Below, piece after piece: positions 8,644 to 30,058 of a DNA stretch of 64,000 nucleotides. The stretch is from positions 156,508 through 220,507 of the forward strand of contig JAVEYW010000005.1 of NCBI GenBank assembly GCA_034003325.1. Direction: 5' to 3'. The position numbers were made by a program, and so were the translations under genes. The notes beneath the pieces are model-generated. The model did not search any database and had not been told where the DNA came from. It saw nothing but the letters and a program-made list of their open reading frames with translations. Positions within the stretch are counted from its first letter, which is position 1; every line of letters begins with the position of its first letter. The DNA comes from Desulfobacterales bacterium. GTDB lineage: Bacteria; Desulfobacterota; Desulfobacteria; Desulfobacterales; JAFDDL01.

Positions 8644-8673
8644 TTCGGTAAAACAGACGCGGGAATAAAAGCC

Positions 8674-12350: not shown

Positions 12351-12572
12351 TTTGGTCGTACTAAACGCTGGAAGCTGGGCGGCTGGGCTGCTTGGCGGCA
12401 AACGGCCTTCTCCGATGATACACACTTTATCCCCCCAACACACGCCGCGTATTTTATCCAAAAACGCCGAAATAAATTGTTTGAAACGAGTTAGCCTTGC
12501 TTTTGATGGCAGGCGGTAGACCATCGGTTGTTCCGAATCGAACGTTGTTTTTTTAAAGCTTTCGTGTGGGCG

Positions 12573-12779
12573 CATTACCGGTTTGTTAACACCTCTGGAT
12601 CAACACGGTATAGGGGCGAACCTGTGCGCGCGCCTATTGCCTTTGTAGGGGCAGACCTGCGTGTCTGCCCCCGTGAATCATAGTGCACGCTCCCCGCCCA
12701 ACCCAGGGCGGACACACAGGTCCGCCCCTACGTTGACCGCGACGCCATGGATGTTGTTTTCATAAACAAACCGGTAATG
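12573..12779 (+). mobile_element. Family-2 MITE-like element, full copy with 15-bp terminal inverted repeats
   Basis: The left end CATTACCGGTTTGTT (12573-12587) is the exact reverse complement of the right end AACAAACCGGTAATG (12765-12779). The interior carries three GC-rich hairpins. No coding capacity. Confidence 0.7.
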
Positions 12780-13029
12780 GTCCTTTTCGTATTCGCGTTT
12801 GGGCACCACTGCAAAAAGAAGATCAAAATAAACCGGCTCATAGAGGACTAATCCTTCTTTAATCTTGCCAAAACAAAACTCGTCCAAAAGTAAAACCGTC
12901 TCTCTGATTTCCCATGGCGGTCATAGCTCATATAACCGGCTCAATCGATGGGGGCAGGGCAAAAAAAACAGGAAGAAGGTCATTATCTGGTTGGAAGTAT
13001 TTATCTATTTAATTTAAAGGAGGAGATTC

Positions 13030-17202: not shown

Positions 17203-17324
17203 GCTGTATGGTCTCCTTTTCGGTCTGAATAGACAAGTCTATGCCCGGTAAACGGACTTCAATATATTGTGTTATCAAAAGCACCTTCGTATTTGGCCGG
17301 CATTAGGGGTGAAATAAAAAAGGA

Positions 17325-18641
17325 TTAGGTGCGTTTTCCCTGTTTAAAGACACGCAGGCGTTCCGGGCGGGGCGGCATGCGACCGTTAAAAAAATCGCAG
17401 GCGCCGTAATAGAGTAGATCCTGAAGCCAATGGCGGTAAAATCGGGGGGATTTGACCCATTTTTTCAATTCCCGAACCGGCGCGAACAACCCGTTCAGAA
17501 AGGGACCGGAAAGTGTTGATGGATCGCGAAAACATTCCCAGTCACAGGCCGTGCAGCTTGCCGAAGTATTGATGGCGGTCTGATTCAGCTGTTGAAATTT
17601 GCCGAGATTTTCCATACCCCGGTAACCGCAGGGAAAGGTATCGCCCTGTGATGCATTGACGAAGAAAAAGTCGATCCCGCCGCGGCATGAATACGTGTTG
17701 CCGAACAGGTCGCCACACTGATTTTCAAGCATATCGAGTGAGCAAAGGGGTGTGAAAATACGAATATCGGCGCGAAAGGCTTGGACCGTCTCTCCAAGCG
17801 CTTTAAATAATAGTGCTTTTTCGTAATTTGTAAATCGCACGATGTCGTCCACCGCGGTGGCGGCGTATACGGGAGATAACCCGCTGTCGGTTTCGCTGTT
17901 TCCAAGGCTCATCGGGTAGCATGCACTGACAATGGTAAAACCGAGTGAAAGGATAAAACGATAATACCTATGAAAGGCGTTAAGGTAGCGTGTGTAAAAT
18001 TCGGCCAGATACGCCGCCTCACAATGAAACTGCGTACGGCTAAGCTCCCGCGTGAGATGCCCGCCCAGGTTGCGATTGATGCCGAGGTTTGCGGAAGGGT
18101 ACAGGCCGCGCGCGTGAAAAATCGGCAACGCCTTTTCCAATCCCCGAATAATGCCCTTAAACCCCCTCATGCCCTCGTGAACTTCGGGTATGAAGGAATC
18201 AATACTGATCCAAAAATTTCGCAAGGGGGTTTCCGCAAGGGCATCGGCGACGCGAGCGATTCTTGAGCTGAACTCGGGGGATTGCGAATATTGAAAGATA
18301 AAGCCGTTGGTGCCGGTCCGAATACAGGGAATCCCTTGCGCGCCGGCGTAAGAAATCAGCGTTGTCAGCTCTTTGAGACGCAACAGCGGTTCGCCGCCCG
18401 TAAAGGAGACCGCCGCAAAACCCTTTTCAGCGGCAGCCCGAAGCATCGGCTTGATCCTTTCGACGGATAAGCTCGATCGGTCAAAGGGTTCGGTGACGCG
18501 CATGCCGCATTGAGGGCAACGGGCATTGCATCGATCGGTCAACTGAATCACCAGTTGGCCGGGAAGCCTTTTGTGCCGCAGCATGGATAAGATTCGGGTT
18601 GCTTTAATTTTGCCGTGAGCGGTCATTGGAAGAGAAGACAT
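17325..18641 (-). CDS. Radical SAM enzyme with C-terminal Cys-rich (SPASM-like) extension
   Basis: CNARCPQCGM (CxxxCxxC) near the N-terminus and GGEPLL. C-terminal cysteines CSLD..NQC, YSCRGG..FPCGYRG and SCTACDWEC are compatible with auxiliary Fe-S clusters. Confidence 0.8.
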   Translation of the reverse strand: MSSLPMTAHGKIKATRILSMLRHKRLPGQLVIQLTDRCNARCPQCGMRVTEPFDRSSLSVERIKPMLRAAAEKGFAAVSFTGGEPLLRLKELTTLISYAGAQGIPCIRTGTNGFIFQYSQSPEFSSRIARVADALAETPLRNFWISIDSFIPEVHEGMRGFKGIIRGLEKALPIFHARGLYPSANLGINRNLGGHLTRELSRTQFHCEAAYLAEFYTRYLNAFHRYYRFILSLGFTIVSACYPMSLGNSETDSGLSPVYAATAVDDIVRFTNYEKALLFKALGETVQAFRADIRIFTPLCSLDMLENQCGDLFGNTYSCRGGIDFFFVNASQGDTFPCGYRGMENLGKFQQLNQTAINTSASCTACDWECFRDPSTLSGPFLNGLFAPVRELKKWVKSPRFYRHWLQDLLYYGACDFFNGRMPPRPERLRVFKQGKRT

Positions 18642-18871
18642 TCTCCTTTGGCGGTTAATCTAAGGCTTGAGAAGGGGTTGAGTTTGTATTCGATTATTCC
18701 GATGGCCGATAGTTCGTTCACGGCGGTTTCAAACAGTTGTTTTTCAATTCGGGACAGTTTTTCCAGGTATTCCCTGCGCAGCCATAACCCGGAGAGAATA
18801 TGTCGTTCACTGCTCATGGTTTTGAACTTGAATAAAATATCGCGCTTGATTTCTTTAATGCTCTTTGCCAT
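18623..18871 (-). CDS. Small hypothetical protein (82 aa), overlaps the radical SAM start by 19 nt
   Basis: AGAGGT RBS 6 nt upstream of the ATG. The pattern ..LFETAVNELSAIGIIEYK.. suggests a winged-helix / PqqD-like (RRE-like) fold, but this is weak. Confidence 0.5.
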   Translation of the reverse strand: MAKSIKEIKRDILFKFKTMSSERHILSGLWLRREYLEKLSRIEKQLFETAVNELSAIGIIEYKLNPFSSLRLTAKGECLLFQ

Positions 18872-18943
18872 TTTCTACCTCTTTTCTTTTTCCGGTGAAC
18901 GGGATGCGCATCCAAGCCAAACGATATTATTGCCGAAGCAGCA

Positions 18944-20749
18944 TTAGTTGGCCAGTCGAAGCCCCAATCTCGGGAACTCCGGTGCGATTTCGCTGATGCA
19001 CAGCTTATCGTCGGATTGTTTGGCGGTCTTTTTCATGGCGGCCAATTTGGTGCCGATGTTTTCGACAGAATAGACACCGCGATCCCCGGGGGGCAATACC
19101 AAGATGCTCGTGCTCACGGTCAACAGCGGTATTTTCTTCTCCTGGCCTTCCCGATCCCGAGTCAAAATGAATCCATCCCGGACGGCCTCGGGCTCATAAA
19201 AGCTTTCAGCGTCATTTTTAAATTGGGCGGCTAACCGCCGAACGCCGGTGATGACCTTTGGGGATACGAGGTTTTTCAGCCCGAGGAAAAAATCGTCTCC
19301 GCCGATATGCCCCACCAGCTTACCCGCGAACTCATCGAAGCTACTGAGAAGCTCGGCAAACCGCAGAATCAACCGATCGCCGTGCCGGAACCCGTATTTG
19401 TCGTTAAACGCCTTAAAATTATCAAAGTCAAAATGAATACAATAGTATTGGTTCTCAAGGTCGCTGAGTGCCGTGGAGATATATTCGTAGATAATCGTAT
19501 TGCCGGGAAGTTTTGTCAGCGGGTTCTGATCTCTGGCGATGGAGAGGTTTTTTTCGTTCAGAATCTTCAATAGGGATTGAGCGCTTAAAAAGCCGATGTA
19601 CTTTAGATCCTCTAAAATAAGCAACCCTTCCAAGGTTTCGTTCTGTGCAAAAATTTTCAACACTTTTTCAATGGAAGTTGTTAAACTCGCAACGGGAAAT
19701 TTGCTGATAAAGCGGGAAAGGCTTTTCCCGAACGTCGGATTTTCCAGAAGTTGCCGGCCGTAACGGGAATAGGCATAATCCTTGAATGCCGACTCGCGAA
19801 TGATGCCAAGCGGCTCCCCGTTGTGATTGATGACGGGGAAAAAAGGCGAGTTTTTGTCTTCCCGAAATTTTTCAAAAACGGTGATGATATCCTGATCCTC
19901 TTGAATAGGCGGCAGATGACGCATTTCCGTTTTAATCAGGGTTTGATCAATGGTGGTGTCATATCGCCTGTCCGACTGGCTCATCAGCTCGATGGTGTCA
20001 TATTTTTTTTGTAATTCGGAAATGTCCGTTTGTGGTTTTTGCACGAGATAGCCTTGCACCAGGTCGCACCCGATGCTTCGGCAGCCGTAAAACTCCTGGC
20101 GGGTTTGCACGCCTTCAGCCACTACCACCGCTCCCATCAGATGGGCGATTTCGACGATACTGGAGACAAAAAGCCGCTTTTTGGCATCCGTTTCGATGTC
20201 CATGATGAAAAAACGGTCGATCTTAATATAGTCCGGCTCAGCGTAATATAACAGTTTCAACCCCGAAAAGCCGCTGCCGCAATCATCCACCGCGATTCTG
20301 AACCCCTGGGTTCGATAGGTGCAAAAGGTTGCCGCAGCCTTTTGCCCGTCAGCCAGTTGGTGCTTTTCTGATATTTCAAAACAAAGGCAGGTATGTGGCA
20401 GCCCCAGCTTCTCCATCTGTCGAATGGTTTGACCGTTTTTATAATCCGATGAATCAAAAAGACGGTTATCGAGATTATAAAATAATTTGGTGAACCGGCA
20501 CCACGCGATATCGGCAAATTTATGGATGGCCTTTTCCCTGAGCCGTAAATCTACCTGATGAAGTATATTTTCGTTGAAAGCCCGGTCAAATAAATTCCCG
20601 ATCGACGTAAAGCCGGCGGCTTCCCAGTTGCGCAAGAGCGCCTCGTATCCGTAGCAGACACCGGAATGAATATTCACGATGGGCTGAAACGCAAAGTCAA
20701 TGCGTTCTATTCTATCGAGCCAATCGTTGCTGATCGCGTCGTTATTCAT
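18944..20749 (-). CDS. c-di-GMP protein: EAL - tandem CBS - degenerate GGDEF (GGDDF)
   Basis: EAL motifs (GYEALLR, DDCGSGFSGL, IKIDRFF, AEGVQT, VQGY), a central CBS pair, and a C-terminal GGDEF-like domain with HIGGDDFFLG. Confidence 0.85.
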   Translation of the reverse strand: MNNDAISNDWLDRIERIDFAFQPIVNIHSGVCYGYEALLRNWEAAGFTSIGNLFDRAFNENILHQVDLRLREKAIHKFADIAWCRFTKLFYNLDNRLFDSSDYKNGQTIRQMEKLGLPHTCLCFEISEKHQLADGQKAAATFCTYRTQGFRIAVDDCGSGFSGLKLLYYAEPDYIKIDRFFIMDIETDAKKRLFVSSIVEIAHLMGAVVVAEGVQTRQEFYGCRSIGCDLVQGYLVQKPQTDISELQKKYDTIELMSQSDRRYDTTIDQTLIKTEMRHLPPIQEDQDIITVFEKFREDKNSPFFPVINHNGEPLGIIRESAFKDYAYSRYGRQLLENPTFGKSLSRFISKFPVASLTTSIEKVLKIFAQNETLEGLLILEDLKYIGFLSAQSLLKILNEKNLSIARDQNPLTKLPGNTIIYEYISTALSDLENQYYCIHFDFDNFKAFNDKYGFRHGDRLILRFAELLSSFDEFAGKLVGHIGGDDFFLGLKNLVSPKVITGVRRLAAQFKNDAESFYEPEAVRDGFILTRDREGQEKKIPLLTVSTSILVLPPGDRGVYSVENIGTKLAAMKKTAKQSDDKLCISEIAPEFPRLGLRLAN

Positions 20750-21014: not shown

Positions 21015-21290
21015 ATGGTGGAAGAAACAGTTAAATGCCCGTCCTGCGGATCCACGGCATATTACCAATACGGCCGGGTAAAGAATGGTAAAAAGAGGCG
21101 CTTGTGTCTGAGTTGTAACCGGCAGTATGTCGTTGAAGGGAGGCCGGCAGATATCTTGAGTCGACCTCGATGCCCGGTATGTAATGCACCGATGCATGTT
21201 TATAAACGGGAGGCGGCCTTGACGCGATATCGATGTAAGTATTATCCCGAATGTAAAACGTTTGTAAAGATCCAGAATAAAGAGGAATAA
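21015..21290 (+). CDS. Double zinc-ribbon protein (91 aa)
   Basis: Four CxxC pairs: CPSC..CLSC and CPVC..CKYYPEC. The second half resembles topoisomerase-type C4 fingers. Confidence 0.55.
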   Translation: MVEETVKCPSCGSTAYYQYGRVKNGKKRRLCLSCNRQYVVEGRPADILSRPRCPVCNAPMHVYKREAALTRYRCKYYPECKTFVKIQNKEE

Positions 21291-21300
21291 GGAGGTATCA

Positions 21301-21669
21301 ATGAGCTACTATGTTCATCATACACCGGGAAGATTGCGAATACGGATTCCCGCGATACGGAACAATCCCCGAAAGGTGGATGCGGTCAAAACGATTTTGG
21401 ATATTCGCGGAACGGAAAGGGTCGAGGTGAATCCGTTGACCGGAAGCGTCGTTATTACTTATGATGCAGCCGTTATCAACTCGCAAGAGCTGTTTAACGT
21501 GTTGCAACATCATGGGTTCTATAGTGAGGGGCGCGCCATCACGCTTGATGCACAAATTCAGCAGGCCAGTCACAAGGCGGCTCGCAAGGTGGGTCGGGCC
21601 TTTTTTGGCTGGGCCGTCGGCAGGGTTCTGGAAGACAGTGGACTGGCGTTCATTGCGGCGTTAATTTAG
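21301..21669 (+). CDS. HMA2-like (heavy-metal-associated-like, no CxxC) domain protein
   Basis: AAGGAGG RBS. HTPGRLRIRIP...VEVNPLTGSVVITYD is the same pattern as the N-terminus of the ATPase at 23486-26566 and of the ORF at 26825-27325. Confidence 0.6.
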   Translation: MSYYVHHTPGRLRIRIPAIRNNPRKVDAVKTILDIRGTERVEVNPLTGSVVITYDAAVINSQELFNVLQHHGFYSEGRAITLDAQIQQASHKAARKVGRAFFGWAVGRVLEDSGLAFIAALI

Positions 21670-21707
21670 TTCGCATCATCCGAATGCAGGTCCAGGGGTA
21701 ACGCCTT

Positions 21708-22259
21708 TTATCCGGAATCGGAGGTGCGGGCAGTATTTCGTTTTTTTTCAAGTCTACCAATCCTTCCTTCAAAGCCTGTTTTTGTTCCGTTTTTTAATCC
21801 ATACGACAACGCCTTGTTACAGAGGATAATCGCTTCATCATAACGTTTATCTTCTTCCATTGCGATAGCCGCCAATTTAAATGTTTCAATGCGCCCGGGG
21901 CGGTCATTTCCGGATTGGCCGATTGCTGTCAGCACGGTGGGAATCATGTCGATGTGCCGGCCCGAGTAGCGGTAGAAGGCCTCTCTGGCGGCTGGTTCGG
22001 ATCGCATGCGATAATATATGGCAACAATTCGTGTAAGAAGCGCGTCTTGAAGCAACGGGTCGTTTGTCGCCTCAAGCAGCGCGGTCATCATCGTTATGTC
22101 TCCGGAAGCCAAGGCGTTTTCAACATTTTCCCGAATCCTCACAATGGAATTTACGTCACCTGCCGGTCGGGATTTTTTTCGTTTTAAAGTGTTTATACCC
22201 TTTAATAGAAGATAAAGGAGCCCCCCTAAGCCGCTTACGGAAATCCAAAAAAAACTCAT
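21708..22259 (-). CDS. Membrane-anchored helical-repeat (TPR-like) protein
   Basis: GGAGG 5 nt upstream of ATG 22259. One N-terminal TM (FFWISVSGLGGLLYLLL) followed by a helical soluble domain. Last gene of the ATPase operon. Confidence 0.5.
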   Translation of the reverse strand: MSFFWISVSGLGGLLYLLLKGINTLKRKKSRPAGDVNSIVRIRENVENALASGDITMMTALLEATNDPLLQDALLTRIVAIYYRMRSEPAAREAFYRYSGRHIDMIPTVLTAIGQSGNDRPGRIETFKLAAIAMEEDKRYDEAIILCNKALSYGLKNGTKTGFEGRIGRLEKKRNTARTSDSG

Positions 22260-22286
22260 AATAACCTCCAAAAGGATCGCTTTAGC

Positions 22287-23468
22287 TTACAACGGGTCGA
22301 TTGCGCCCGTTTTTTCCCATGGAAGCGCAATATCTTCCCGCCCGAAATGGCCGTAGGACGACAGCCTTTGAAAAAAGCCATCCGGATGCCGGGCAGGCAG
22401 ATGCCTGAGTTCAAATGCCTTCAGAATGCCGGCCGGTCTGAATTCAAAACGCTCCTGAACCAGATCGGTTAGATGTTGATCTGATTCTCGTCCCGTGCCG
22501 AAGGTGTTGACCATAATCGATACCGGTGCGGCCAGACCGTTAGCATAGCTCACCGCGACTTCGCAGGATGTCGCCAAACCGGCCGCCACCAGGTTCTTGG
22601 CCGCATACCGGGCCGCGTAGGCGCCGATCCTATCCACCCGCATCGGGTCTTTACCACTGAGGGCCTTACCGCTTTGGCGGGCGTACTCGCCGTAGGTGTC
22701 AACGGCGTTCTTCCGGCCGGTTAGCCCGGAATGATTTAAAGGACCACCCAAATAAGGGCCGTCGGGGTTGACATTCACCCATGTTTTCTCATCGGGTGTA
22801 ATCGCCATGGAATGAAACACCGGGGTGACGACCGCATCGAGCAGATCCTGTTTCAGAATTTCCGTATTCGGGTTGCTCAAGTGTCGCGTGTGAATTTCCA
22901 TCGTGATGCTGTGAATTCGATACGGTATTCGCTGCTTATATTCTACGCCCACTTGAACCTTGCTGTCCGGCATGAGGTAGGGAAGCACCCTTTCTTTTCT
23001 AACTGCGCTCAAGCGCTGCGTTAGCCGATTGGCCAGAAATATGGGCAGCGGCATAAGTACGGGACTTTCGTTTGTGGCATATCCGAATACAGTCACCTGG
23101 TTTCTGGCCGGGATGTTGTTTATTTCGGAATCCGAAAGGGTGCGTTCGTCAAAACGGCTGCTTTCATCGATCGCCGCGGCCTGCGGCGACGTGAGAATAC
23201 TGCAGTTTTTCGGGTTGAATTCCGGCTGATCATACCCGATCCGTTTAATGACCTTTCTGGCCACATGCGTCAAATCTACGGTAACGGTGGAAGCAAATCG
23301 CGCAGCGATAAAGACGATGGCGCCCGAAACGGCACACTCGCAGCGAACCTTTGAACAGGGTTCAAGCGCGAGAAAATGATCCACCACGGCATCGCTGACC
23401 TGATCGCATAGCTTGTCGGGGTGGCCTTCGGTTACGGATTCGGAGGTGAAAACAAAATTATCAATCAT
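22287..23468 (-). CDS. S-adenosylmethionine synthetase (MetK) family paralog with degenerate signature motifs
   Basis: Clear MetK fold (SESVTEGHPDKLCDQVSD, GLTGRK, SGKDPMRVDR, AAYAARYAAKNLVAAGLA, YGHFGRE). However, GAGDQG reads ARNQVT, GGPxGD reads GGPLNH, and GGGAFSGKD reads QSGKALSGKD. Starts 17 nt after the ATPase stop. Confidence 0.8.
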   Translation of the reverse strand: MIDNFVFTSESVTEGHPDKLCDQVSDAVVDHFLALEPCSKVRCECAVSGAIVFIAARFASTVTVDLTHVARKVIKRIGYDQPEFNPKNCSILTSPQAAAIDESSRFDERTLSDSEINNIPARNQVTVFGYATNESPVLMPLPIFLANRLTQRLSAVRKERVLPYLMPDSKVQVGVEYKQRIPYRIHSITMEIHTRHLSNPNTEILKQDLLDAVVTPVFHSMAITPDEKTWVNVNPDGPYLGGPLNHSGLTGRKNAVDTYGEYARQSGKALSGKDPMRVDRIGAYAARYAAKNLVAAGLATSCEVAVSYANGLAAPVSIMVNTFGTGRESDQHLTDLVQERFEFRPAGILKAFELRHLPARHPDGFFQRLSSYGHFGREDIALPWEKTGAIDPL

Positions 23469-23485
23469 AATAGCTCCCCATGGCG

Positions 23486-26400
23486 TTAAACAGGTGTCTT
23501 TGCACCCTCTACTTCAGGTTTTCGAATATGGGATTTCGTTTTTGCCGCTTCATTGAACAACAGGGGTAAAACGGAGGTGCCGGCGATAACGGCCAGATCC
23601 ATCAGGGCGGGCGCCTTAAGGCCCAGCAACGAGCGAAGCGGCGGAAAGACCATTGTCAGCGCCTGCAAGGCCAGAGAGCCGCCGACCGCGATGCGCAGAT
23701 AGGGGTTGGCGGCCGTCTTCCTTCGGCCGAACAAGCTGGCATGCTCCGAGCGGCAACTGATCGCGTGCAGCAGTTGTGCGATGGTGAGGCTCTGAAAGGC
23801 CAACGAAGCAGCCCCGCTTCCGAGTCCGTATCGCGCAATCCCATAGCCGTATGCGGCCAGGGCCCCGCCGGTGATGGCCGCGGACTCGCGGGTCATTTGA
23901 AGGAAATCACCGGCTGAAAAGAGGGGCGCGGCCGTCTGGCGCGGGGGCCGGCTCATTACATCGTCTTCGGCCTCCTCCATCGCAAGGGCCAGCCCGGGAA
24001 AGATATCGGAAATAATGTTGATCCATAACAGTTGCATGACGTTTAACGGGAACCCGATGCCCAAGGCCATGGCGGCCGTCATCAGTATGATTTCGCTGAT
24101 GTTGGTGGACAGAAAAAAGTGAACCGATTTGCGAATATTGACATGAATGGTCCGGCCGTCTTTTAGCGCCAGCGCCAGTGTTTCCAGGTCATCTTCCTCC
24201 AGTACCATATCTGCGACATCCCTGGCCACATCGGTGCCTGTTTTGCCCATTGCAATGCCGATATCCGCGGCTTTGAGCGCGGGGCCATCGTTAATGCCGT
24301 CTCCGGTCATGGCCACAGTGACGCCGGCTGACTGCAGCGCTTGGACAATCTGCAACTTGTGCGCGGGACTGACCCTTGAATAAACGTGAGCCTTGGTGGC
24401 CAGCGCCTTGAGGGTTTCCGGATTTACAGCGGACAGATTCGATGAGTCGAGAATTTCGATAGGCCCGTCAGCGGCCAGATTCAATTGTTCAGCAATGGCA
24501 AAGGCGGTCGAGCTTTGATCGCCGGTGATCATGATGGTGTCGATACCGGCGCGATGGAATACCTGAATCAACGGCTGAACCCCCGGTCGAATCGGGTCCG
24601 CCATTCCCACCAATCCCAGCCAGACCAAATCTGAATCGTTCTCCACTCCCGTATCATCTGAAAACCGCTTATAAGCAAACCCAAGCACGCGCAGCGCCGC
24701 CGAAGCCATCTTTTCATTTTCGGATTCGATCGAGAGCCGCCTTGCGTCCGTCAACGGCTGTACAGCGCCGTTTACAGCCTCGCTGCTGCACATGGCCAAA
24801 ACTTCCGGCGGGCTTCCCTTGGTGTAACCTATCCGGTCATTTTCAGGCGTTCTGTGCAACGTGCTCATGAAAAGGCGGTTTTCGGATCGGTGATTGATCT
24901 CCAATCGGCGATAATCATGATTCATTCGGTGAATGTTAAAGCCGGCATCGATGGCCAGTTGCACCAGGGCTTTTTCAGTGGCGGAGCCGAACAACTCGAT
25001 TTGTCCCGATGCATTCGTCCCGTTGAGCTTAACCTCATGACATAGGGCGCAGGCTGTAATGAGTTGTAACAGGCCCTCATCGGTCGATGGATCGGCTGAT
25101 GAGGCATTGCCGGCGGTCAGACGACCGTTGGCGACGTTGTAGCAATGTTCCCCGGCGCAGATGCGCTGAACGGTCATGAGATTACGGGTAATGGTTCCCG
25201 TTTTGTCCATACATATGGCTTGAACGGCGCCCAATGTTTCCACCGCATGTAAATGCCGGATCAACACGCGATGCTTGCGCAGTTTTTTAATACCGAGAGC
25301 GAAATTGATGGTGGCGGCAGCCGGCAACCCCTCGGGAACGGCGGCCGCCGCCAGGGATATGGCCATTCGCAACATGGTTAGAAAACCATATCCCTGAAGC
25401 AAGCCGATGAGAAACACGACGCTGCAGATACCCCCGCACATGAGCACCAGATGGTCCCCCATTTGCCTCAATTGCCGTTCAATCGGCGTTTCCGGCGTTT
25501 CCGTCCGGTTGAGCATCATCTGAATATGACCGATTTGAGTGGCTTCGCCGGTTGCAACCACCACGGCGAGGCCTTGCCCGCCGGTGACCAGTGTTCCCAT
25601 ATAAGCCATGTTGGTACGGTCTGCCAGCGCGATATCGGCCGCTGTTAACCGTCCGGCATGCTTATCCACCGGCAGGCTTTCGCCGGTGAGCATGGATTCG
25701 TCGATACTTAAATGAGCCGCCGAAAGAATTCTAGCATCCGCGGCGACATAAGCGCCGGGTTTAAAGACGAGTATATCACCAGCCACGACGGATTGGACGG
25801 GAAGCGCCCTTGTTTTGCCATCGCGTATCACCTCGGCATGGGGTCGTACCAGGCTTTTGAGCGAATGGATGGTTTTTTCCGCCGCGCTTTCCGTAAAATA
25901 GCCGACGACCGCATTGGCGACCACCACCCCCATGATCACAGCCGCATCAAATAGCCCTCCGGTCAATACCGACACCCCGGCCGCAGCGCCCAAAAGATAA
26001 ACGGGCAGGCTGTTCATCTGATTCAAAAAGATTTGCCAGCCGGATCTCGGTTCGGCTTCAGGCAGCAGATTCGGGCCGTATTCTTTCAGAAGGGAATCGG
26101 CGAATCGATCGGACAATCCGAGTTTGTCGGAAGAGTGAAGCGTTTCAAGAATGGATCGGCTTTCCATTAAATGCCATTTTGGATTGTCACCTGTTTCCGG
26201 CGGTATCGGCAATGGGGTTGAATTTGTTTTTGGGCGCGCCTGTCTTTGTTTCCCTTTCGAGTTGTCACCCCTTCGAGGTCGAATCACTCGTTGCGAAACA
26301 ACGGAATTTTCCGAGTCCTGGATATATGTTTGAACGATCTGTTGAATGATTACCGCAACCGAATGGTGATTGTTATTCGAATTGTAAGACACCAGCAGGT

Positions 26401-26566
26401 TGCCGGTAATACAGCTTGCAGATGCCTTAATAATAGCGGAATCACGGCTTAGCTGATGCTCCAGGTATTGTTTGACGCCCGGTTCGTGTCGAAGACCCGG
26501 AATTTTAAAACGGGCGCGACCGCTCACCTTGGTATGGAGGGGTTGAATCGATGGCATGCTAAACAT
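23486..26566 (-). CDS. P-type (P2-like) cation-transporting ATPase with N-terminal HMA2-like domain
   Basis: TGES, PEGLP in TM4, CMDKTGTITRN, MITGD and GDGINDGPALKAADIGIAMG. Cation_ATPase N- and C-terminal regions. The first ~80 aa contain GRARFKIPGL...ASCITGNLLVSY. Confidence 0.9.
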   Translation of the reverse strand: MFSMPSIQPLHTKVSGRARFKIPGLRHEPGVKQYLEHQLSRDSAIIKASASCITGNLLVSYNSNNNHHSVAVIIQQIVQTYIQDSENSVVSQRVIRPRRGDNSKGKQRQARPKTNSTPLPIPPETGDNPKWHLMESRSILETLHSSDKLGLSDRFADSLLKEYGPNLLPEAEPRSGWQIFLNQMNSLPVYLLGAAAGVSVLTGGLFDAAVIMGVVVANAVVGYFTESAAEKTIHSLKSLVRPHAEVIRDGKTRALPVQSVVAGDILVFKPGAYVAADARILSAAHLSIDESMLTGESLPVDKHAGRLTAADIALADRTNMAYMGTLVTGGQGLAVVVATGEATQIGHIQMMLNRTETPETPIERQLRQMGDHLVLMCGGICSVVFLIGLLQGYGFLTMLRMAISLAAAAVPEGLPAAATINFALGIKKLRKHRVLIRHLHAVETLGAVQAICMDKTGTITRNLMTVQRICAGEHCYNVANGRLTAGNASSADPSTDEGLLQLITACALCHEVKLNGTNASGQIELFGSATEKALVQLAIDAGFNIHRMNHDYRRLEINHRSENRLFMSTLHRTPENDRIGYTKGSPPEVLAMCSSEAVNGAVQPLTDARRLSIESENEKMASAALRVLGFAYKRFSDDTGVENDSDLVWLGLVGMADPIRPGVQPLIQVFHRAGIDTIMITGDQSSTAFAIAEQLNLAADGPIEILDSSNLSAVNPETLKALATKAHVYSRVSPAHKLQIVQALQSAGVTVAMTGDGINDGPALKAADIGIAMGKTGTDVARDVADMVLEEDDLETLALALKDGRTIHVNIRKSVHFFLSTNISEIILMTAAMALGIGFPLNVMQLLWINIISDIFPGLALAMEEAEDDVMSRPPRQTAAPLFSAGDFLQMTRESAAITGGALAAYGYGIARYGLGSGAASLAFQSLTIAQLLHAISCRSEHASLFGRRKTAANPYLRIAVGGSLALQALTMVFPPLRSLLGLKAPALMDLAVIAGTSVLPLLFNEAAKTKSHIRKPEVEGAKTPV

Positions 26567-26824
26567 CCGACGGCATTAAATGAAGTTGGAATGATAGAAA
26601 AACCTCGAACTGGCGGCGATTGCGCAGCTCTAAAGGCGGCATCCTGCGGCAGCAACTTTTCGAAAAGAGTCGATGATCACATCGGGGTGGTTAGTCGAAA
26701 AAAAAATCGATTCAACAAAACAAATTAAGTTTTGGCGGCGCATGGGCGGAATGGGAACCGCATATGGAAACATGACATGATAAGCACGAGCGCAACTTTA
26801 ACCAAACACAACCCGCAGGGTTTG

Positions 26825-27325
26825 TTACCTGTCGATATCGATCGTCCGGTTTAATTCGTCGTAGAGCGACTTTGAAAAAAGTCCGAATGCGTACCAGAAC
26901 GCGGTGTACCAAGGTGGTCGTCTGAAATTACCAATGGCCAATTCCCACACGCCAAAAATCAGGAGAAGGAGAAACAGTGCACCAGGCAAATCCAGCGCAC
27001 CGTCCGACAGCACATTAATTCCGCAATTTACTTTTCTGATGGGCGCGGCGATGCGTTCGGCAAGCTTTTTGGGTGCCGGCGTGCCGGGGGTAATCAGAAA
27101 TAATTGGCGTTGGGATGCGATGGAACGCACCGCTTCAATGTTGACCGAGTCGTTCTCTATTACCAAGCAGCCCGTTAGCGCCGAAACCGTTATGGTGGAT
27201 GATGAAAGCGCTTCTTTAAGCCAATTTTCAACCTTTTCAAAATAGGCTGAATCCCCTCTTTTCGACATAACTTGAAGACGCAACCGTCTTCTCAGGCTGT
27301 GTTTAATCGTCGCTTCCGGTAACAT
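26825..27325 (-). CDS. HMA2-like domain protein with C-terminal membrane segment(s)
   Basis: RRRLRLQV...VSALTGCLVIEND pattern, then the hydrophobic stretch LPGALFLLLLIFGVWELAIG. Confidence 0.6.
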   Translation of the reverse strand: MLPEATIKHSLRRRLRLQVMSKRGDSAYFEKVENWLKEALSSSTITVSALTGCLVIENDSVNIEAVRSIASQRQLFLITPGTPAPKKLAERIAAPIRKVNCGINVLSDGALDLPGALFLLLLIFGVWELAIGNFRRPPWYTAFWYAFGLFSKSLYDELNRTIDIDR

Positions 27326-27372
27326 GTCAATCCCAATGCACTCGGTTAAAGCCTGTTGTCATCGAAACGGCG

Positions 27373-27624
27373 TCATTCCGGTGTGCTTTCGTTTGCCTGC
27401 AAAATCTCGGATTTGGCTTCAGCCGCCAAATCTTCGAGGGTTTCCTTGGTTTCGGCAATGGTCACCTTGACCCCTTCATAGGCAAGCAGCCCGCCCTTGA
27501 TGATGGCCTTGGCCAGAGGTTTCAGTATGCTGCCGACTACGGGAATAATAACGGGTGCAAGGAGCACGACACCCGCGCCGATGGCAATGTTGCCTACACT
27601 TAATCCGCCGCTGAAAATCTTCAT
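27373..27624 (-). CDS. DUF5132-like small membrane protein (83 aa)
   Basis: GGGAGG 6 nt upstream of ATG 27624. Gly/Ala-rich TM (GNIAIGAGVVLLAPVIIPVVG) followed by an amphipathic acidic helix (LEDLAAEAKSEIL). Assignment is from recalled family appearance only. Confidence 0.5.
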   Translation of the reverse strand: MKIFSGGLSVGNIAIGAGVVLLAPVIIPVVGSILKPLAKAIIKGGLLAYEGVKVTIAETKETLEDLAAEAKSEILQANESTPE

Positions 27625-27767
27625 GCTGCACCTCCCTTTAAAATATATCGTGTGAGACACATGGTTTTACCCTATCATTCGTAATCGAAAAAAGTCGATA
27701 CAAACTTTCATTACTTTACCTACCGGATGAGGGGTTCCCCCGGGTTGGTCGGAGAGAAGCCGTTGGA

Positions 27768-29657
27768 TCATGCGGCATTGGCGTTTGTATGTGTTCGATG
27801 GGTCGTTCCGGCAAGGTAATGGTTAAAATTGAAAAACATCGCTGCGCCATCTTTTCCCATATATCGCGCAAGGGTTTTTTGATCGTTTTTAAATAAATCC
27901 ACAATAATCAGCCCGTCCAATGCATGATTGAACTGTTTGTCCACATTAAAAGCGAGTATCTGGCCGCCGAGATTCAGGTAATGCTTCAGCAGAATCGGAA
28001 TGCCCTTGTTGTCGATTTCGATATCGGAGATAACGGCGTTGACCTCATGGATGTCACGGCAGAAACTTTCCATATCATCCGCTTGACAGCCTTTCACCCG
28101 AACCGGTTTCAAGGCCGGCGGTGATTTTGGCCTCACCATGGCCGCAATATCGCCTGCGTGATGATGCCAGAGCAGGGTTGTGGTTATTAACTGCCGTGAA
28201 AAGTCGCTGTAATCGCGGCTGATACTGACCGGTCCGAACAGCATGCGGTATTTCGGGTTTCTGGCGATGAAATGACCGATTCCTTTCCACAACAACAATA
28301 ACGGAGAATAGGATTTTTGATATTCGGGCCGGACAAAAGACCGGCCCAGCTCAAGCGCCGGTCCGATCTTTTCATAGAAAGCCGTGTGGCTATGAAATAA
28401 AGTCGCGGTATACAGGCCGCTTTTACCGTAACGATCGAGAATAATATCGGTACGGCCGAGACGGTAGGCGCCAACCACTTCACGGGTTTGATTATTCCAG
28501 ATGAAGATATGAAGGTAATGAGAATCAAAAGCGTCCATGTCGATGGCATTCCCGGAGCCCTCGCCTGCCAACCGGAAACTTTGTTCCCGAAGACGGCTGA
28601 TTTCAATCATCAGGCGGGGTATCTGCTCAAAGGAAGCCTGCCAAACCGTGAACGGACCGCTGGTGATAAGTTGCTGGCGTACCGGAAGCGTGTTTATCTC
28701 CGCCAGGAGAACTACCGGATCCATTGGCCCGGCGACCGGCCGGTTGCGGTGCGATGCCTGAGCGGGGTTTGTGTGAGGGGGAGCGGCGCGCCTTTTCCCG
28801 GCGTGACTGAGTAAATAGGTTCGCCATCTGAGGTAACCCATCAACCGGTCTTCCGCGCAGATTGCACGAAGATGCGGATAAGGAATCAACTTTCCGATTT
28901 TGATCGTTATTTTCCGGTTACGTTTATTTACTAATTCGCGTGGCAGCAGAGCGGTTCTCAGGGCCGGATGAATGAGGCCGAGAAGTTGAAATAATGTTCC
29001 GTTTGCGCCATCTATAAAAATCGGCAGAACCGGAGCTTGTGCTTTGTGAATGATCTTGCCGCTGCCCGTATTCCAGGCGGGGTCGGATATTTCGCGCCGG
29101 GAAAGGCTCAAATGGGAAACGGTTCCAGACGGAAATACCAGCAGGGCGCCCCCCTGTTGGACCCATTGAATCGCTTTTCGCATGGGGCCGATATTGGTAT
29201 GCATTGATTTTTCGGAGGGGTTCGGATCCACCGATAATAATAATTCCCGCATTTGGGGAATCCGATCGAGTATGAAATTCGCCATCACCTTGATATCCGG
29301 CCTGATGGAAAGCAACAGCGCCGTCAGCATAATGCCTTCTAATGCGCCGAAAGGGTGATTCGCCACAATCACCAGCGGGCCTTTTTTCGGGATAGCGGCC
29401 TTTTCCGTTTCATTCACGGAGAATTGAATATCGAGGGCGATTAAAATGCTCTCGAAGAATTCACGAGGGCCTTGGTTGGCATCCAGCGTTTGATACAGAT
29501 GCCGGCATTGCTGAATGGCTGTCAGCGATACAAACGGTTTTGCGAGAAGATTCAGGACGCGATGTTCGCGTTTGCCGTTTTCTGGCATAAACGACGTCAT
29601 TGAATGGGGGGATATCGTTTCCGGGAAGAGAAGCAATTGTTTTTCGGCGGATTCCAT
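27768..29657 (-). CDS. Bifunctional acyltransferase: N-terminal PlsC-type plus C-terminal OlsB-like GNAT (OlsF-like aminolipid synthase)
   Basis: The N-terminal half has VIVANHPFGALEG and FPSGTVS (lysophospholipid acyltransferase blocks). The C-terminal half has FDSHYLHIFIWNNQTREVVGAYRLG (N-acyl amino acid synthase / OlsB-like pattern). AGGAGA RBS. Confidence 0.7.
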   Translation of the reverse strand: MESAEKQLLLFPETISPHSMTSFMPENGKREHRVLNLLAKPFVSLTAIQQCRHLYQTLDANQGPREFFESILIALDIQFSVNETEKAAIPKKGPLVIVANHPFGALEGIMLTALLLSIRPDIKVMANFILDRIPQMRELLLSVDPNPSEKSMHTNIGPMRKAIQWVQQGGALLVFPSGTVSHLSLSRREISDPAWNTGSGKIIHKAQAPVLPIFIDGANGTLFQLLGLIHPALRTALLPRELVNKRNRKITIKIGKLIPYPHLRAICAEDRLMGYLRWRTYLLSHAGKRRAAPPHTNPAQASHRNRPVAGPMDPVVLLAEINTLPVRQQLITSGPFTVWQASFEQIPRLMIEISRLREQSFRLAGEGSGNAIDMDAFDSHYLHIFIWNNQTREVVGAYRLGRTDIILDRYGKSGLYTATLFHSHTAFYEKIGPALELGRSFVRPEYQKSYSPLLLLWKGIGHFIARNPKYRMLFGPVSISRDYSDFSRQLITTTLLWHHHAGDIAAMVRPKSPPALKPVRVKGCQADDMESFCRDIHEVNAVISDIEIDNKGIPILLKHYLNLGGQILAFNVDKQFNHALDGLIIVDLFKNDQKTLARYMGKDGAAMFFNFNHYLAGTTHRTHTNANAA

Positions 29658-30058
29658 TTTATTCTCCTATGATAAGGTTTGACGAACCGGCGGCACACCT
29701 TTCCGTTCGGGTTGCTTTTCGGGCAAGGGGCTTTTTTTTCCTTGAAACCGATATCGAATTGAATAGGCCCTGATCGTTATTATTTTACTAGCGTTTGATT
29801 AATATACCGCAAGATGGAGAACGGTCATAAAAACAGCCGGCAGCACCGATTCCGTTTTCCGGACAAGCATATATTGATTGAAATGAAGAGATGTTGATGC
29901 TACGATTCATCATCAAAACCATTCTTATCAGTGCCTTTATCAGAAATATACGGGCACGAACGCGCTTGTTCGTATCTATTCAATAGTGATTGTTGATGTC
30001 TGCGTCTTTTGACCTTCCAGCTTTCAGCTTACGGCGTTGCCGGGATCGGAGATGGGGT

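Follow-up and report, generated by a model that had tools for sequence, protein, structure and literature searches.

A conserved operon of a P2A-type cation pump, CoBaHMA modules and a MetK-like protein in a Desulfobacterales bacterium: a possible ferrosome-like calcium store

What is the role of a P-type ATPase that is encoded among three HMA-like modules, small membrane proteins and a relative of the SAM synthetase MetK? This question was raised by one locus of a Desulfobacterales bacterium, lying in the window (the whole stretch of 64,000 nucleotides analysed here), for which a first-pass annotation had listed seven open reading frames and knew of no described function. All seven ORFs were confirmed by their translations, and the genes and domains were found as described. 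The minus strand carries, in order, the genes for a DUF5132 protein, a CoBaHMA-hairpin protein, the ATPase, a MetK-like protein (after a 17-nt gap from the ATPase stop) and a last membrane protein, and the genes of a zinc-ribbon protein and a stand-alone HMA-like protein converge on this operon, as had been proposed. The operon is widely conserved, this locus being one of its copies, and centres on a P2A-type cation pump with an N-terminal CoBaHMA domain; the cluster contains a Ca-type pump, three CoBaHMA copies, two tiny membrane proteins and an altered MetK. The synteny comparison gave a conserved gene order in 60+ loci of five phyla: DUF5132, HMA_2 hairpin, HMA_2-ATPase and MetK-like genes are shared across Desulfobacterota, Nitrospirota, Methylomirabilota and Binatia, and the ATPase and MetK-like pair is present in Cyanobacteria as well. 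DUF5132 precedes the hairpin protein and pump in 29/32 Desulfobacterota and 5/5 Nitrospirota loci; both accessory genes occur in 3 of the 14 cyanobacterial loci, most of which lack the two. The interpretation given at first pass was thus supported on the three points where it could have failed, namely synteny, a common profile for the modules and the relatives of the pump.

The first-pass annotation had seen one module three times, each time lacking CxxC, and both statements hold. The PF19991 (HMA_2) profile, with a cut-off of 30 bits, matches the small protein of 122 aa (21301..21669, plus strand; 46.6 bits, E 4.5e-12), aa 11-79 of the ATPase (26330..26536, minus strand; 30.9 bits) and the 166-aa protein with a two-helix membrane hairpin (26825..27325, minus strand; 34.9 bits, profile positions 9-152 of 154). 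The translations contain no CxxC motif in any of the three, the small protein has zero cysteines, and H, R-x-R, R and T-G are invariant when the three copies are aligned. In the ATPase module, H-x4-GRxRF[KR] (H8, G13, R14, R16) is invariant among 22 diverse homologues, and the conserved residues in these alignments are basic, not metal ligands. HMA_2 corresponds to CoBaHMA, a family without metal-binding cysteines whose basic patch is a proposed binding site for anionic partners (PMC8890360; bioRxiv 10.1101/2024.07.07.602159), in agreement with the earlier view that these domains are unlikely to be simple metal chaperones. A regulatory role of CoBaHMA via anionic lipids has also been proposed in the literature. 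The modules share with the family (Benzerara et al. 2022, PMC8890360) the ferredoxin-like HMA core with an extra N-terminal strand, the conserved His and basic residues, and the occurrence alone or fused to membrane or transport proteins. The P2A pump fusion, the MetK-like link and the present cluster are absent from the accessible descriptions, and no description of the cluster was found in the searchable literature, but the module itself was already named, and the fusion to the pump may be among those listed by Gaschignard et al. 2024 (Proteins 92:776). The small protein had been regarded as free; its HMA_2 match stands, but it carries a hydrophobic or amphipathic C-terminal tail, conserved as GRAxFGWAVGxxLExxGLxxxAAxI. 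In 20 or more loci, an orthologue of 122-126 aa converges on the operon. The double zinc-ribbon gene (91 aa; 21015..21290, plus strand) is the first of a two-gene unit, 10 nt upstream of the small CoBaHMA gene, with weak IS1/IS1595-type (NCBIfam IS1_IS1595_Zn, 31.7 bits, cut-off 28) and Topo-I-type zinc-ribbon matches; 17 loci, and the locus L090 as well, have a homologue beside the small CoBaHMA gene.

The pump gene (23486..26566, minus strand; 1023-1026 aa) encodes the N-terminal CoBaHMA module, a basic low-complexity linker of ~50 aa and the Pfam domains Cation_ATPase_N, E1-E2, Cation_ATPase, Hydrolase and Cation_ATPase_C. The ORF of 1026 aa is present as annotated, but the start is most likely three codons later, at 26557 (1023 aa), as in an identical database protein and the homologues. 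The motifs are TGES (294), PEGLP (411), DKTGT (454) and TGDGINDGPAL (~754-764; GDGIND 755). A P2-like pump, not a P1B heavy-metal pump, had been proposed, and this was borne out: the best NCBIfam models were PMR1-type (606 bits, cut-off 798) and SERCA-type (519 bits, cut-off 703), no equivalog cut-off was reached, the P1B model scored 235.6 bits (cut-off 346), and the best-scoring models, PEGLP and the Cation_ATPase_N and C regions assign the subtype P2A. The protein groups with P2A Ca2+ pumps, its closest solved relatives being SPCA1 (8iwp, 478 bits), LMCA1 (6zhf, 453 bits) and SERCA1 (SERCA1a, 1su4; 373 bits), and comparison with the P2A models and solved structures gave no characterised relative whose accessory proteins are known. 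It shares with these three the full P2A domain set, TGES, DKTGT, GDGxND and the TM4 PEGLP, and adds the CoBaHMA module and basic linker. The ion site is formed by E of AVPEGLP (TM4), N and E of STNISE (TM5) and N/S/D of WINIISD (TM6), with Q in TM8 where SERCA has E908, and is invariant or near-invariant across 120 homologues. The TM5/TM6 ligand type is that of SERCA, whereas SPCA1 has S and A in place of the TM5 N and E. Because this SERCA-like site is invariant in the family, Ca2+ is the likely substrate. In addition, a Na_Ca_ex gene lies inside the cluster in 5 loci, which together with the ion site was counted for the Ca2+ reading, and MntP-type Mn exporters adjoin it in 8 loci.

The AF2 model of the hairpin protein (41 sequences, pLDDT 87.3) predicts strands at 4-11 (the extra beta0), 14-18, 44-48 and 53-57, helices at 26-39 and 63-72, an amphipathic helix at 88-106 and the membrane hairpin at 113-131 and 139-165. 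Its intramembrane motif PPWYTAFWYAFG is invariant, the family has 218 representatives (50% clustering, E<=1e-30), and no PDB entry matched the fold significantly, the resemblance to Atx1, GolB and ZntA-N being weak. The first operon gene (27373..27624, minus strand; 83 aa) is a DUF5132 member as supposed, with a PF17195 score of 46.4 bits (cut-off 25); its start is probably the ATG at 27624, with the RBS GGGAGG 7 nt upstream. This protein consists of an N-terminal glycine-rich TM segment with GxxxG, followed by an acidic helix. Since the DUF5132 tail is acidic (net charge -6; family median -3.5), the CoBaHMA N-termini are basic, and DUF5132 is fused to the hairpin protein in Nostocales, a physical association of these proteins is suggested. 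The last operon gene (21708..22271, minus strand) encodes an all-helical protein of about 183-187 aa, anchored by one N-terminal TM helix. It had been called a TPR-like membrane protein; the membrane anchor and helices stand, but it is only possibly TPR-like, as no Pfam or NCBIfam model matched and the TPR proteins on top of the fold matches of its single-sequence AF2 model (pLDDT 65, nine helices) were not significant (E 0.02-0.1). Only 12 loci, all Desulfobacterales-type, have a homologue at this position. A short motif, ATCGAYTYTTTT(N0-3)CGA, occurs twice at 26660..26711 (minus strand), within the 258-nt spacer that precedes the ATPase gene, and a third time at 27685..27699 (minus strand), ~60 nt ahead of the DUF5132 start; the 258-nt spacer showed neither an Rfam match nor an unusual fold. 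The pattern, drawn up post hoc from the copies, has these 3 matches in 64 kb, all in the two 5' spacers of the operon (0/100 shuffles), and is absent in 86 related loci.

The MetK-like protein (393 aa; 22287..23468, minus strand) contains all three MetK Pfam domains, as expected of the MetK paralog first reported, and judged by its residues it is a distinct subfamily, not an ordinary MetK. It shares with canonical MetK (E. coli 1rg9/1p7l; TIGR01034) the three-domain fold, the catalytic His, the ribose ligand D163 and the Mg/K/triphosphate ligands, the retained residues being H14, D16, K17, E42, D163, K165, R244, K245, K265 and D271; the ATP residues are retained as well. Compared with E. coli MetK and the PDB MetK structures, GAGDQG is replaced by PARNQV (D118N/Q, the loop being gone), GGEIT by AARFA, GD(C/A)G by NHSG and K269 by R, and the G-rich loop HGGGAF by HSGxAL. 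All four methionine ligands, with roles taken from PMC1282579 and PMC3853416, are changed (E55R, Q98 to L/Y/A, D238H, K269R), H for D238 being found in 67/67 locus copies and 119/120 database homologues. Identity is 53-80% across phyla and 40-42% to E. coli MetK, and the proteins form a separate clade. The gene almost always follows the pump, directly 3' of it in 48 of the 61 loci with room; starting from the MetK side, pump adjacency was found in 4/4 places with stop/start overlaps of 4 to 11 nt, likewise seen in other loci.

Phosphate genes (pst, phn, PHO4, phoU, ppk1 or ppx) lie <=10 kb away in 17/41 non-cyanobacterial loci and in 0/14 cyanobacterial ones; chance is ~3% per 20-kb window by a rough calculation, and such proximity is association only. 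The window holds the whole Pho core (phoR-like, phoB-like, phoU and pstCASB), an OlsF-like gene and a PIN-PhoH gene. No Pho-box-like repeat was found at the cluster, though one precedes pstC in the window. Furthermore, a partition pair, made up of a ParA-like ATPase and a membrane-tailed partner of 64-66 aa, adjoins the cluster in 6 loci, which we counted as a sign of discrete cargo.

Two published systems come close. In the fez clusters, which build iron-storage organelles (ferrosomes), R-rich motifs are found at the N-terminus of a P-type ATPase, in FezC (an HMA domain and two TM helices) and in a soluble protein, and small GxxxG membrane proteins are encoded as well (Grant et al., bioRxiv 10.1101/2020.01.10.902569); FezA and FezB suffice for ferrosomes in E. 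coli (10.1101/2025.09.22.677801), and the ferrosome mineral is iron phosphate (PMC13307979). Drawn from these descriptions and not from a sequence alignment, the parallel suggests that the present cluster resembles fez component by component: both have a P-type ATPase whose N-terminus is an arginine-rich (RxR/RxRxR) module, an HMA-like two-TM partner bearing the same motif, a small soluble motif protein and at least one small hydrophobic protein with GxxxG. The phosphate in the fez mineral was counted as a further likeness to the proposed Ca store. In contrast, FezB is P1B-6 with D[YF]SCA and HNxxT (a motif search that here covered the neighbouring ATPases only), whereas the present pump is P2A with PEGLP; fez neighbours are iron genes and here they are phosphate genes, and a MetK-like or DUF5132 gene is reported in no fez cluster. 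The calcyanin gene (ccyA) of Microcystis aeruginosa PCC 7806, linked to intracellular amorphous calcium carbonate, is flanked by two DUF5132 copies, a Ca2+/H+ exchanger gene and the genes of a CoBaHMA-hairpin and a further CoBaHMA protein, and it shares its expression pattern with the DUF5132, hairpin and exchanger genes (Bruley et al., bioRxiv 10.1101/2024.07.07.602159). Common to both neighbourhoods are DUF5132 with a TM segment and long helix, the CoBaHMA-hairpin fusion, a stand-alone CoBaHMA and a nearby Ca2+ transporter gene, with correlated expression in Microcystis. However, the transporter is a CAX exchanger there and a P-type ATPase here, calcyanin is absent here and the MetK-like gene there, and the hosts here are mostly anaerobic Desulfobacterota.

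The best explanation, which we hold tentatively at a probability of about 0.4, is that the module is ferrosome-like and fills a membrane-bound Ca-phosphate store with Ca2+. The pump would export Ca2+, possibly also Mn2+, from the cytosol. The basic CoBaHMA faces may dock on an anionic partner, the acidic DUF5132 helix and/or anionic lipids, and this docking would gather the pump, the hairpin protein and DUF5132 in one membrane patch. The MetK-like protein would make no SAM and may serve as a stoichiometric pump partner handling ATP or (tri)phosphate. By analogy with fez, the patch would become or feed a membrane-bounded store that keeps Ca2+ together with phosphate or polyphosphate. Against a store, P2A export of Ca2+ across the cell membrane would show an identical sequence. 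The cyanobacterial copies, mostly without accessory genes and all without phosphate neighbours, also speak against it, as do the missing Pho-box-like repeat, the lack of a calcyanin-like gene within the cluster and the finding of no close pump copy on cyanobacterial plasmids.

An ordinary Ca2+/Mn2+ efflux pump of the cell membrane, without any organelle, is the chief alternative and also quite plausible, if short of an even chance. DUF5132 and the hairpin protein would then regulate the pump as phospholamban and sarcolipin regulate SERCA, CoBaHMA would sense anionic lipids (the regulation proposed in the literature) or a soluble polyanion, and the system would be used when shifts in phosphate or polyphosphate raise free divalent cations. 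The solved relatives, which are Ca2+ exporters or Ca2+/Mn2+ pumps, the Mn exporters and Na_Ca_ex genes nearby, and the cyanobacterial copies that work without accessory genes are in favour of this; PPWYTAFWYAFG suits a helix-helix contact with the pump, and phosphate neighbours are equally compatible with a stress-response role. It leaves without explanation the ParA-like pairs, the four-way resemblance to fez and the occurrence of DUF5132 and CoBaHMA beside a biomineralisation marker gene, and it gives the MetK-derived enzyme no role.

It is unlikely that the MetK-like enzyme is itself the cluster centre, using ATP as the adenosyl donor for a new acceptor, probably an anion, or serving as a dedicated tripolyphosphatase or polyphosphate-end enzyme, with the pump and partners supplying or removing cations in a small metabolic unit and not an ion store. 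H14, the catalytic acid, is retained together with every triphosphate ligand, the acidic acceptor pocket (E55, D238) has turned basic in every member (R55, H238, R269), the identity across phyla would argue for retained activity, and low-molecular-weight phosphatase/ArsC-like genes adjoin the MetK-like gene in at least 9 loci. However, no further biosynthetic gene is conserved alongside, the pump is the only invariant partner, and a Microvirga plasmid has DUF5132, hairpin proteins and the pump with no MetK-like gene. We consider it very improbable that this gene is a housekeeping SAM synthetase placed beside the pump without meaning: it passes the NCBIfam metK equivalog cut-off (TIGR01034, 371 vs 309 bits) and is named methionine adenosyltransferase by NCBI and JGI, but the methionine ligands and GAGDQG loop are replaced in every member, the clade is its own, and the pump adjacency with overlapping codons extends over five phyla. 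A second, canonical metK is inferred in the carrier genomes. Heavy-metal resistance, in which HMA-like metallochaperones pass a soft metal to the ATPase, is hardly credible, for the Pfam name 'heavy metal associated domain 2', a weak CopZ-like match (E 0.008), the weak fold resemblances and CoBaHMA-bearing P1B-type ATPases beside the cluster in 5 loci are contradicted by modules without CxxC (the small one cysteine-free) and with basic conserved residues, and by a pump with PEGLP instead of CPx, Cation_ATPase_N and C regions and a sub-cut-off P1B score.

The repeated module, with its own literature, and the DUF5132 and CoBaHMA neighbours of the calcyanin gene were already known; new in the present study are the distinct MetK subfamily, the DUF5132-hairpin fusion, the ParA-like pairs and the phosphate-gene context. 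If the reading as a Ca-phosphate store is true, the system would be tied to the phosphate economy of the cell.

In the present study, seven genes at 21015-27624 of the window were found to form a cluster around a P-type ATPase, hereafter the pump. Their composition and coupling were observed directly, and every open reading frame proposed by the first-pass annotation was found in place. The minus-strand operon opens with a DUF5132 protein (27373-27624; Pfam 46.4 bits), with an ATG at 27624 and a GGGAGG ribosome site, and continues with a 166-aa protein that joins a CoBaHMA domain (Pfam HMA_2) to a membrane hairpin (26825-27325), here called the hairpin protein. The third gene encodes the pump (23486-26566; 1023/1026 aa). 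A MetK-like protein with all three MetK Pfam domains follows 17 nt after the ATPase stop (22287-23468), and the last gene encodes a membrane-anchored helical protein of 187 aa (21708-22271). On the plus strand, a double zinc-ribbon protein of 91 aa (21015-21290) and a small CoBaHMA protein of 122 aa (21301-21669), which starts 10 nt after the zinc-ribbon gene, converge on this operon. The HMA_2, DUF5132, P2 ATPase and MetK domain calls were upheld by Pfam. The 187-aa protein had been described as a TPR-like membrane protein; the membrane anchor stood, the TPR-like label was weakly supported by a single-sequence structure model of low confidence, and the protein matched no family.

The order DUF5132, hairpin protein, pump and MetK-like protein, first described for the window, recurs in related genomes. 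The neighbourhoods of three pump homologues had an identical gene order each time, with the start of the MetK-like gene overlapping the pump stop by 4-17 nt. A scan of one genome per species, by alignment of the N-terminal 282 residues of the pump, returned 80 loci, among them Desulfosarcina variabilis, many Desulfobacterota MAGs, Nitrospirota, Methylomirabilota, Binatia and 18 cyanobacteria (including Fischerella, Chlorogloeopsis fritschii PCC 6912, Nostoc, Calothrix and Microseira). Genes were then counted with profiles built from the proteins of the window. The MetK-like gene lies directly downstream of the pump in 48 of the 61 loci with room for it, and in more when one intervening gene is allowed. 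DUF5132 is found upstream of the pump in 29/32 Desulfobacterota, 5/5 Nitrospirota and 3/14 cyanobacterial loci, and the hairpin protein in 26/32, 5/5 and 3/14, respectively. The small convergent CoBaHMA protein occurs in at least 20 loci, the zinc-ribbon protein in 17 and the 187-aa protein in only 12. When the cluster was approached from the MetK side, through four homologues picked solely by the length of their contigs, all four lay directly after a CoBaHMA pump with DUF5132 and hairpin genes upstream. In addition, an alphaproteobacterial megaplasmid, pMVF16-1 of Microvirga sp. VF16 (locus L085; NZ_CP069355.1, ~1.18-1.20 Mb), encodes a CoBaHMA pump, with DUF5132 and CoBaHMA-hairpin genes in two copies each and no MetK-like gene.

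The pump has the full P2 set of Pfam domains (Cation_ATPase_N, E1-E2, Cation_ATPase, Hydrolase and Cation_ATPase_C), with all P-type catalytic motifs intact and PEGL in TM4. Its earlier placement as P2-like, not P1B, was borne out by NCBIfam, in which P2A models rank first and P1B models far lower. Membership of P1B fails on both score and motif, since TIGR01525 gives 235.6 bits against a cut-off of 346 and PEGLP stands where CPx is expected. The scores also stay below the equivalog cut-offs of the PMR1 type (606 vs 798 bits) and the SERCA type (519 vs 703 bits), and the pump was therefore filed as a P2A-like clade of its own and not as a PMR1 or SERCA orthologue. The nearest solved proteins are SPCA1 (478 bits), Listeria LMCA1 (453 bits) and SERCA1 (373 bits). 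To the ion site TM4 contributes the E of AVPEGLP, TM5 the N and E of STNISE, TM6 the N, S and D of WINIISD, and TM8 a Q at the SERCA E908 position; these residues are invariant or nearly so in 120 homologues. SERCA numbers were placed on the pump through the SPCA1 alignment and from what we take to be the SERCA ligands; E309/N768/E771/N796/T799/D800/E908 then become E/N/E/N/S/D/Q, so that E908 alone departs, to Q, the other six positions being identical or conservatively changed, and ion selectivity is not readable from the pattern. The set of residues is nearer to the two-site pattern of SERCA than to that of SPCA1, whose TM5 has S and A. On these residues Ca2+ is the most likely substrate, and Mn2+ may also be carried.

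The MetK-like protein passes the TIGR01034 cut-off (371 vs 309 bits) and has the three-domain MetK fold by Pfam, and the NCBI and JGI source names for its relatives are methionine adenosyltransferase or S-adenosylmethionine synthetase. Its residues were read from an alignment with the E. coli enzyme and with MetK proteins of solved structure from the PDB. The ligands of ATP, triphosphate and metal are kept in 62-67 of the 67 locus copies: the catalytic His14, the ribose ligand D163 and the triphosphate ligands D16, K17, E42, K165, R244, K245, K265 and D271, together with the Mg and K ligands. In E. coli MetK, the amino group of methionine is held by Glu55 and Asp238 and its carboxylate by Gln98 and Lys269 (PMC1282579; PMC3853416). 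All four positions are changed here: E55R in 63/67 copies, D238H in 67/67 (His238 also in 119 of the best 120 database homologues), K269R in 66/67, and Q98 to L, Y or A, at a point where the alignment runs through a loop and is less certain. Furthermore, the GAGDQG loop has become xVxNQV in all 67 copies. Identity is 53-80% between phyla and 40-42% to E. coli MetK. Since the methionine ligands are replaced, the triphosphate ligands are kept and the identity range is separate, we concluded from the sequences that this is a neofunctionalised clade. ATP or triphosphate is probably still bound, and binding of methionine is unlikely. A housekeeping MetK, the reading carried by the database names, was rejected on the same methionine-site and loop residues. 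In the E. coli enzyme, the substitutions D118N and D238N remove SAM synthesis and leave much of the tripolyphosphatase activity, which would fit a phosphate-handling role for the MetK-like protein.

The three repeated modules, suspected from the first to be one domain, share a single profile: PF19991 scored 46.6, 30.9 and 34.9 bits at a curated cut-off of 30. Their alignment shows a His, an RxR, an R and a TG that do not vary, in keeping with the family pattern of a conserved His ahead of beta1 and basic residues in beta1/beta2. The H, RxR and R are constant in 22 pump N-termini too, and R14 and R16 across 41 hairpin proteins. As had been noticed earlier, the CxxC metal site of classical HMA domains is absent from all three translations. 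On this feature, together with the PEGLP of the pump, the reading of the modules as heavy-metal chaperones was rejected. HMA_2 corresponds to CoBaHMA ("conserved basic residues HMA"), which was originally recognised as the N-terminal part of calcyanin, a protein that marks intracellular amorphous calcium carbonate in cyanobacteria (PMC8890360). The family lacks the metal-binding cysteines, has an extra strand beta0, and its basic face is thought to bind anionic partners, perhaps lipids (bioRxiv 10.1101/2024.07.07.602159). An AF2 model of the hairpin protein, the copy modelled, was built on 41 homologues (pLDDT 87.3) and reproduced this fold, a ferredoxin-like beta-alpha-beta-beta-alpha core after beta0, with strands at 4-11, 14-18, 44-48 and 53-57 and helices at 26-39 and 63-72. 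Beyond the domain, the model has an amphipathic helix and then a membrane hairpin of two helices, in which the motif PPWYTAFWYAFG is invariant. The model had no significant match among solved structures, classical HMA chaperones being weak hits. An exhaustive profile search for the hairpin family, clustered at 50%, counted 218 representatives with E<=1e-30 and 1401 with E<=1e-10.

The helix of DUF5132 is acidic, with a net charge of -6 in the window and a family median of -3.5, and each CoBaHMA module has a charge of +4 to +6 over its first 30 residues. This makes DUF5132 a candidate anionic partner of the modules. Three genomes of Nostocales have, directly ahead of the pump, a gene that fuses a DUF5132-like N-terminus to the membrane hairpin of the hairpin protein, without CoBaHMA (L073 9294-9848, L082 9329-9865 and L083 9047-9622; L-numbers denote related loci), a Rosetta-stone hint that DUF5132 and the hairpin may work together.

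A known system close to this cluster in its parts is that of the ferrosome (fez) genes. These encode a P-type ATPase with an N-terminal RxR or RxRxR; FezC, which shares this motif and has an HMA domain plus two transmembrane helices; a soluble protein that shares the motif as well; and small GxxxG membrane proteins (bioRxiv 10.1101/2020.01.10.902569). FezA and FezB suffice for an organelle in E. coli (10.1101/2025.09.22.677801), and the ferrosome mineral is iron phosphate (PMC13307979). Set against the published descriptions, each class has a counterpart here: the CoBaHMA pump, the hairpin protein, the small CoBaHMA protein and DUF5132, which carries a GxxxG-bearing membrane segment. The R-rich motif is present on all three of the former, as GRARFK in the pump, RRRLRLQ in the hairpin protein and GRLRIRIP in the small protein. 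The pumps differ, in that FezB is a P1B-6 ATPase with D[YF]SCA and HNxxT, whereas the one here is P2A and of Ca2+ type; the search for these two motifs covered the additional ATPases of the related loci only. The surroundings differ as well, with iron genes beside fez and phosphate genes beside this cluster. A word-indexed search with the hairpin protein gave 80 hits, all of them cluster orthologues, and did not reach FezC. A second comparison is offered by Microcystis, in which the calcyanin gene is flanked by two DUF5132 genes and by genes for a CoBaHMA-hairpin, a CoBaHMA protein and a Ca2+/H+ exchanger, several of them with correlated expression (bioRxiv 10.1101/2024.07.07.602159). Thus, DUF5132 and CoBaHMA beside a calcium transporter have a precedent. 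A direct link to calcyanin was rejected, since searches of a plasmid collection with the MetK-like protein and the Fischerella pump matched no cyanobacterial plasmid carrying ccyA; they recovered canonical MetK at no more than 46% identity and a single Microvirga plasmid. The open reading frames of the cluster all have assignments other than calcyanin, a protein with a triple glycine zipper as its C-terminal domain.

Phosphate genes recur near the cluster. At least one of pstSCAB, phnCDE, PHO4 with PhoU, or ppk1 with ppx lies within 10 kb in 17 of the 41 non-cyanobacterial loci of at least 15 kb, where a rough calculation, not a measured control, gives a random expectation of ~3% per 20-kb stretch. 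With PIN-PhoH and OlsF-like lipid-synthase genes the count rises to 28/41, and in cyanobacterial loci phosphate genes were near the cluster in 0/14. The window itself has a complete Pho core at 3421-14295, 9-18 kb from the cluster: a PhoR/PnpS-like kinase (3421-5238) and a PhoB-like regulator (5235-5927), with PhoU (6109-6765), all on the minus strand; the divergent group pstC (7154-8581), pstA (8674-9957), pstS (10098-11153) and pstB (11457-12350); and a putative porin (13030-14295). Closer to the cluster are an OlsF-like bifunctional aminolipid synthase (27768-29657, minus strand; 398 bits, below the 620 cut-off), which recurs near it in 5 loci, and a PIN-PhoH (PhoH2-like) gene (29990-31390, plus strand), with homologues within 10 kb in 12-14 related loci. 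An 815-aa protein with a PHP domain and a GT4 glycosyltransferase (14755-17202, minus strand) recurs near the cluster in 14-15 loci, and phosphatidylserine-decarboxylase-like and Lgt-like genes lie at 34564-35562 and 35556-36608 (plus strand). The OlsF-like, PHP-GT4, phosphatidylserine-decarboxylase-like and Lgt-like genes make up a set of membrane-lipid genes around the cluster in the window.

At 7052-7080 (plus strand), ~75-100 bp upstream of pstC, the heptamers GGTCTAA, ATGCTAA and ATGCTAA stand at 11-bp spacing in a Pho-box-like arrangement. This triple repeat had no counterpart at the cluster or in the other intergenic regions checked, and the E. coli-type Pho box was absent upstream of the DUF5132 genes. 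Control of the cluster by PhoB was accordingly set aside, as no shared PhoB-type site was found. The 258-nt spacer that precedes the pump gave no Rfam match at E<=1 and a folding z-score of 0.01, and the idea that it holds a riboswitch or a structured leader was likewise rejected. The motif ATCGAYTYTTTT(N0-3)CGA, a pattern written after its copies had been seen, occurs three times in the 64-kb window (26660-26674, 26695-26711 and 27685-27699, minus strand), confined to the two 5' spacers of the operon, and 0 times in shuffles. As it is in none of 86 related loci, a conserved operator was rejected, and the motif may be a local operator or due to chance.

Other neighbours were found in the related loci. 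Within the cluster, 5 loci have a Na_Ca_ex gene, and in 8 loci an MntP-type gene comes after the cluster. A ParA/MinD-like ATPase of 204-228 aa is beside the cluster in six loci (L062, L068, L077, L081, L087 at 8229-9057 and L089 at 8782-9596), and in L062, L081, L087 and L089 it adjoins a partner of 64-66 aa whose N-terminus is basic and whose C-terminus forms a membrane helix. ParA-like pairs position discrete cargos in bacteria, and these two proteins look like such a pair; it is not present in the window. Near the pump, 20 loci of Syntrophobacterales, Desulfobaccales, Nitrospirota, Methylomirabilota and Binatia encode a protein of ~238 aa that matches no Pfam family and contains amphipathic repeats rich in G, A and V; in L055 (294-1010) it ends 75 nt before the pump start. 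It is absent from the window and could be a coat or scaffold protein. Some loci also have, beside the cluster, a further P-type ATPase with an N-terminal CoBaHMA domain, either a P1B type of 720-750 aa with a CPC motif and 468 bits for TIGR01525 (L009 at 6714-8879, L012, L016, L070 and L081) or a P2A-like type of ~990 aa without PEGLP and with 390 bits for the PMR1 model (L007 at 16125-19106, L008, L017, L025, L027, L033 and L075). At least 9 loci have a low-molecular-weight phosphatase/ArsC-like gene (LMWPc, ~143-164 aa) adjoining the MetK-like gene or the pump, and 8 have PadR-type regulators near by; together these were seen in L020, L023, L026, L038, L053, L055, L058, L061, L068, L089 and L090. 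In the window, an EAL-CBS-GGDEF signalling protein (18944-20749, minus strand) diverges from the zinc-ribbon gene, with a radical-SAM protein (17325-18641, minus strand) downstream of it.

Because each fez class has a counterpart here, and the pump is of Ca2+ type with phosphate genes for neighbours, we propose a calcium phosphate store as the tentative main reading, with a probability of roughly 0.4 for the mechanism as a whole. The pump and its small partners would gather in a membrane patch through contacts of the basic CoBaHMA faces, and the patch would move Ca2+ into a store of Ca-phosphate or Ca-polyphosphate enclosed by a membrane, with the MetK-derived enzyme as a stoichiometric partner handling ATP or triphosphate. 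Here we infer the ion, the protein contacts, the location in the cell, the store and the enzyme activity from the conserved genes and residues. Ranking second, close behind and also doubtful, is a regulated Ca2+/Mn2+ efflux pump in the cell membrane with no organelle; sequence alone does not tell the two apart. A wider version of the calcium store is unlikely on present evidence: the cluster would be the blueprint of an unrecognised, ferrosome-like, membrane-bounded Ca-phosphate or Ca-polyphosphate organelle, loaded by a P2A pump, positioned in some species by a ParA-type system of its own, and serving anaerobic Desulfobacterota, Nitrospirota and relatives as a reserve of phosphate and calcium. 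The rebuilt MetK-fold enzyme would then catalyse a reaction new for this fold, either a dedicated processing of tri- or polyphosphate or the transfer of adenosyl groups to an anionic acceptor.

Earlier publications cover the fez principle, the CoBaHMA domain and the presence of that domain next to DUF5132, and the fusion of CoBaHMA to a pump may be in print as well (Gaschignard et al. 2024). In the searchable literature we did not find the cluster as a unit, in line with the first-pass remark that no function was described for this gene combination, nor the obligate MetK-like partner with its rebuilt pocket, the DUF5132-hairpin fusion, the ParA pairs or the association with phosphate genes. 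The cluster reaches at least five phyla. At least 120 MetK-like sequence clusters bear the name "methionine adenosyltransferase" in public databases, probably a wrong annotation, and the MetK fold may have gained new chemistry. A P2A pump that bears a CoBaHMA tag and has small subunits of its own would represent a new way of regulating such pumps. The formation of Ca/P-rich inclusions by bacteria could be studied in cultured carriers such as Desulfosarcina variabilis, Desulforhabdus sp. TSK, and PCC strains of Fischerella and Chlorogloeopsis. Recent work on ferrosomes and on CoBaHMA and calcyanin suggests that a P-type pump or Ca2+ transporter with small basic-domain and hairpin proteins suffices to build or supply a mineral compartment in bacteria, and the cluster would carry this building principle of a pump plus small proteins from iron to a calcium-type pump.
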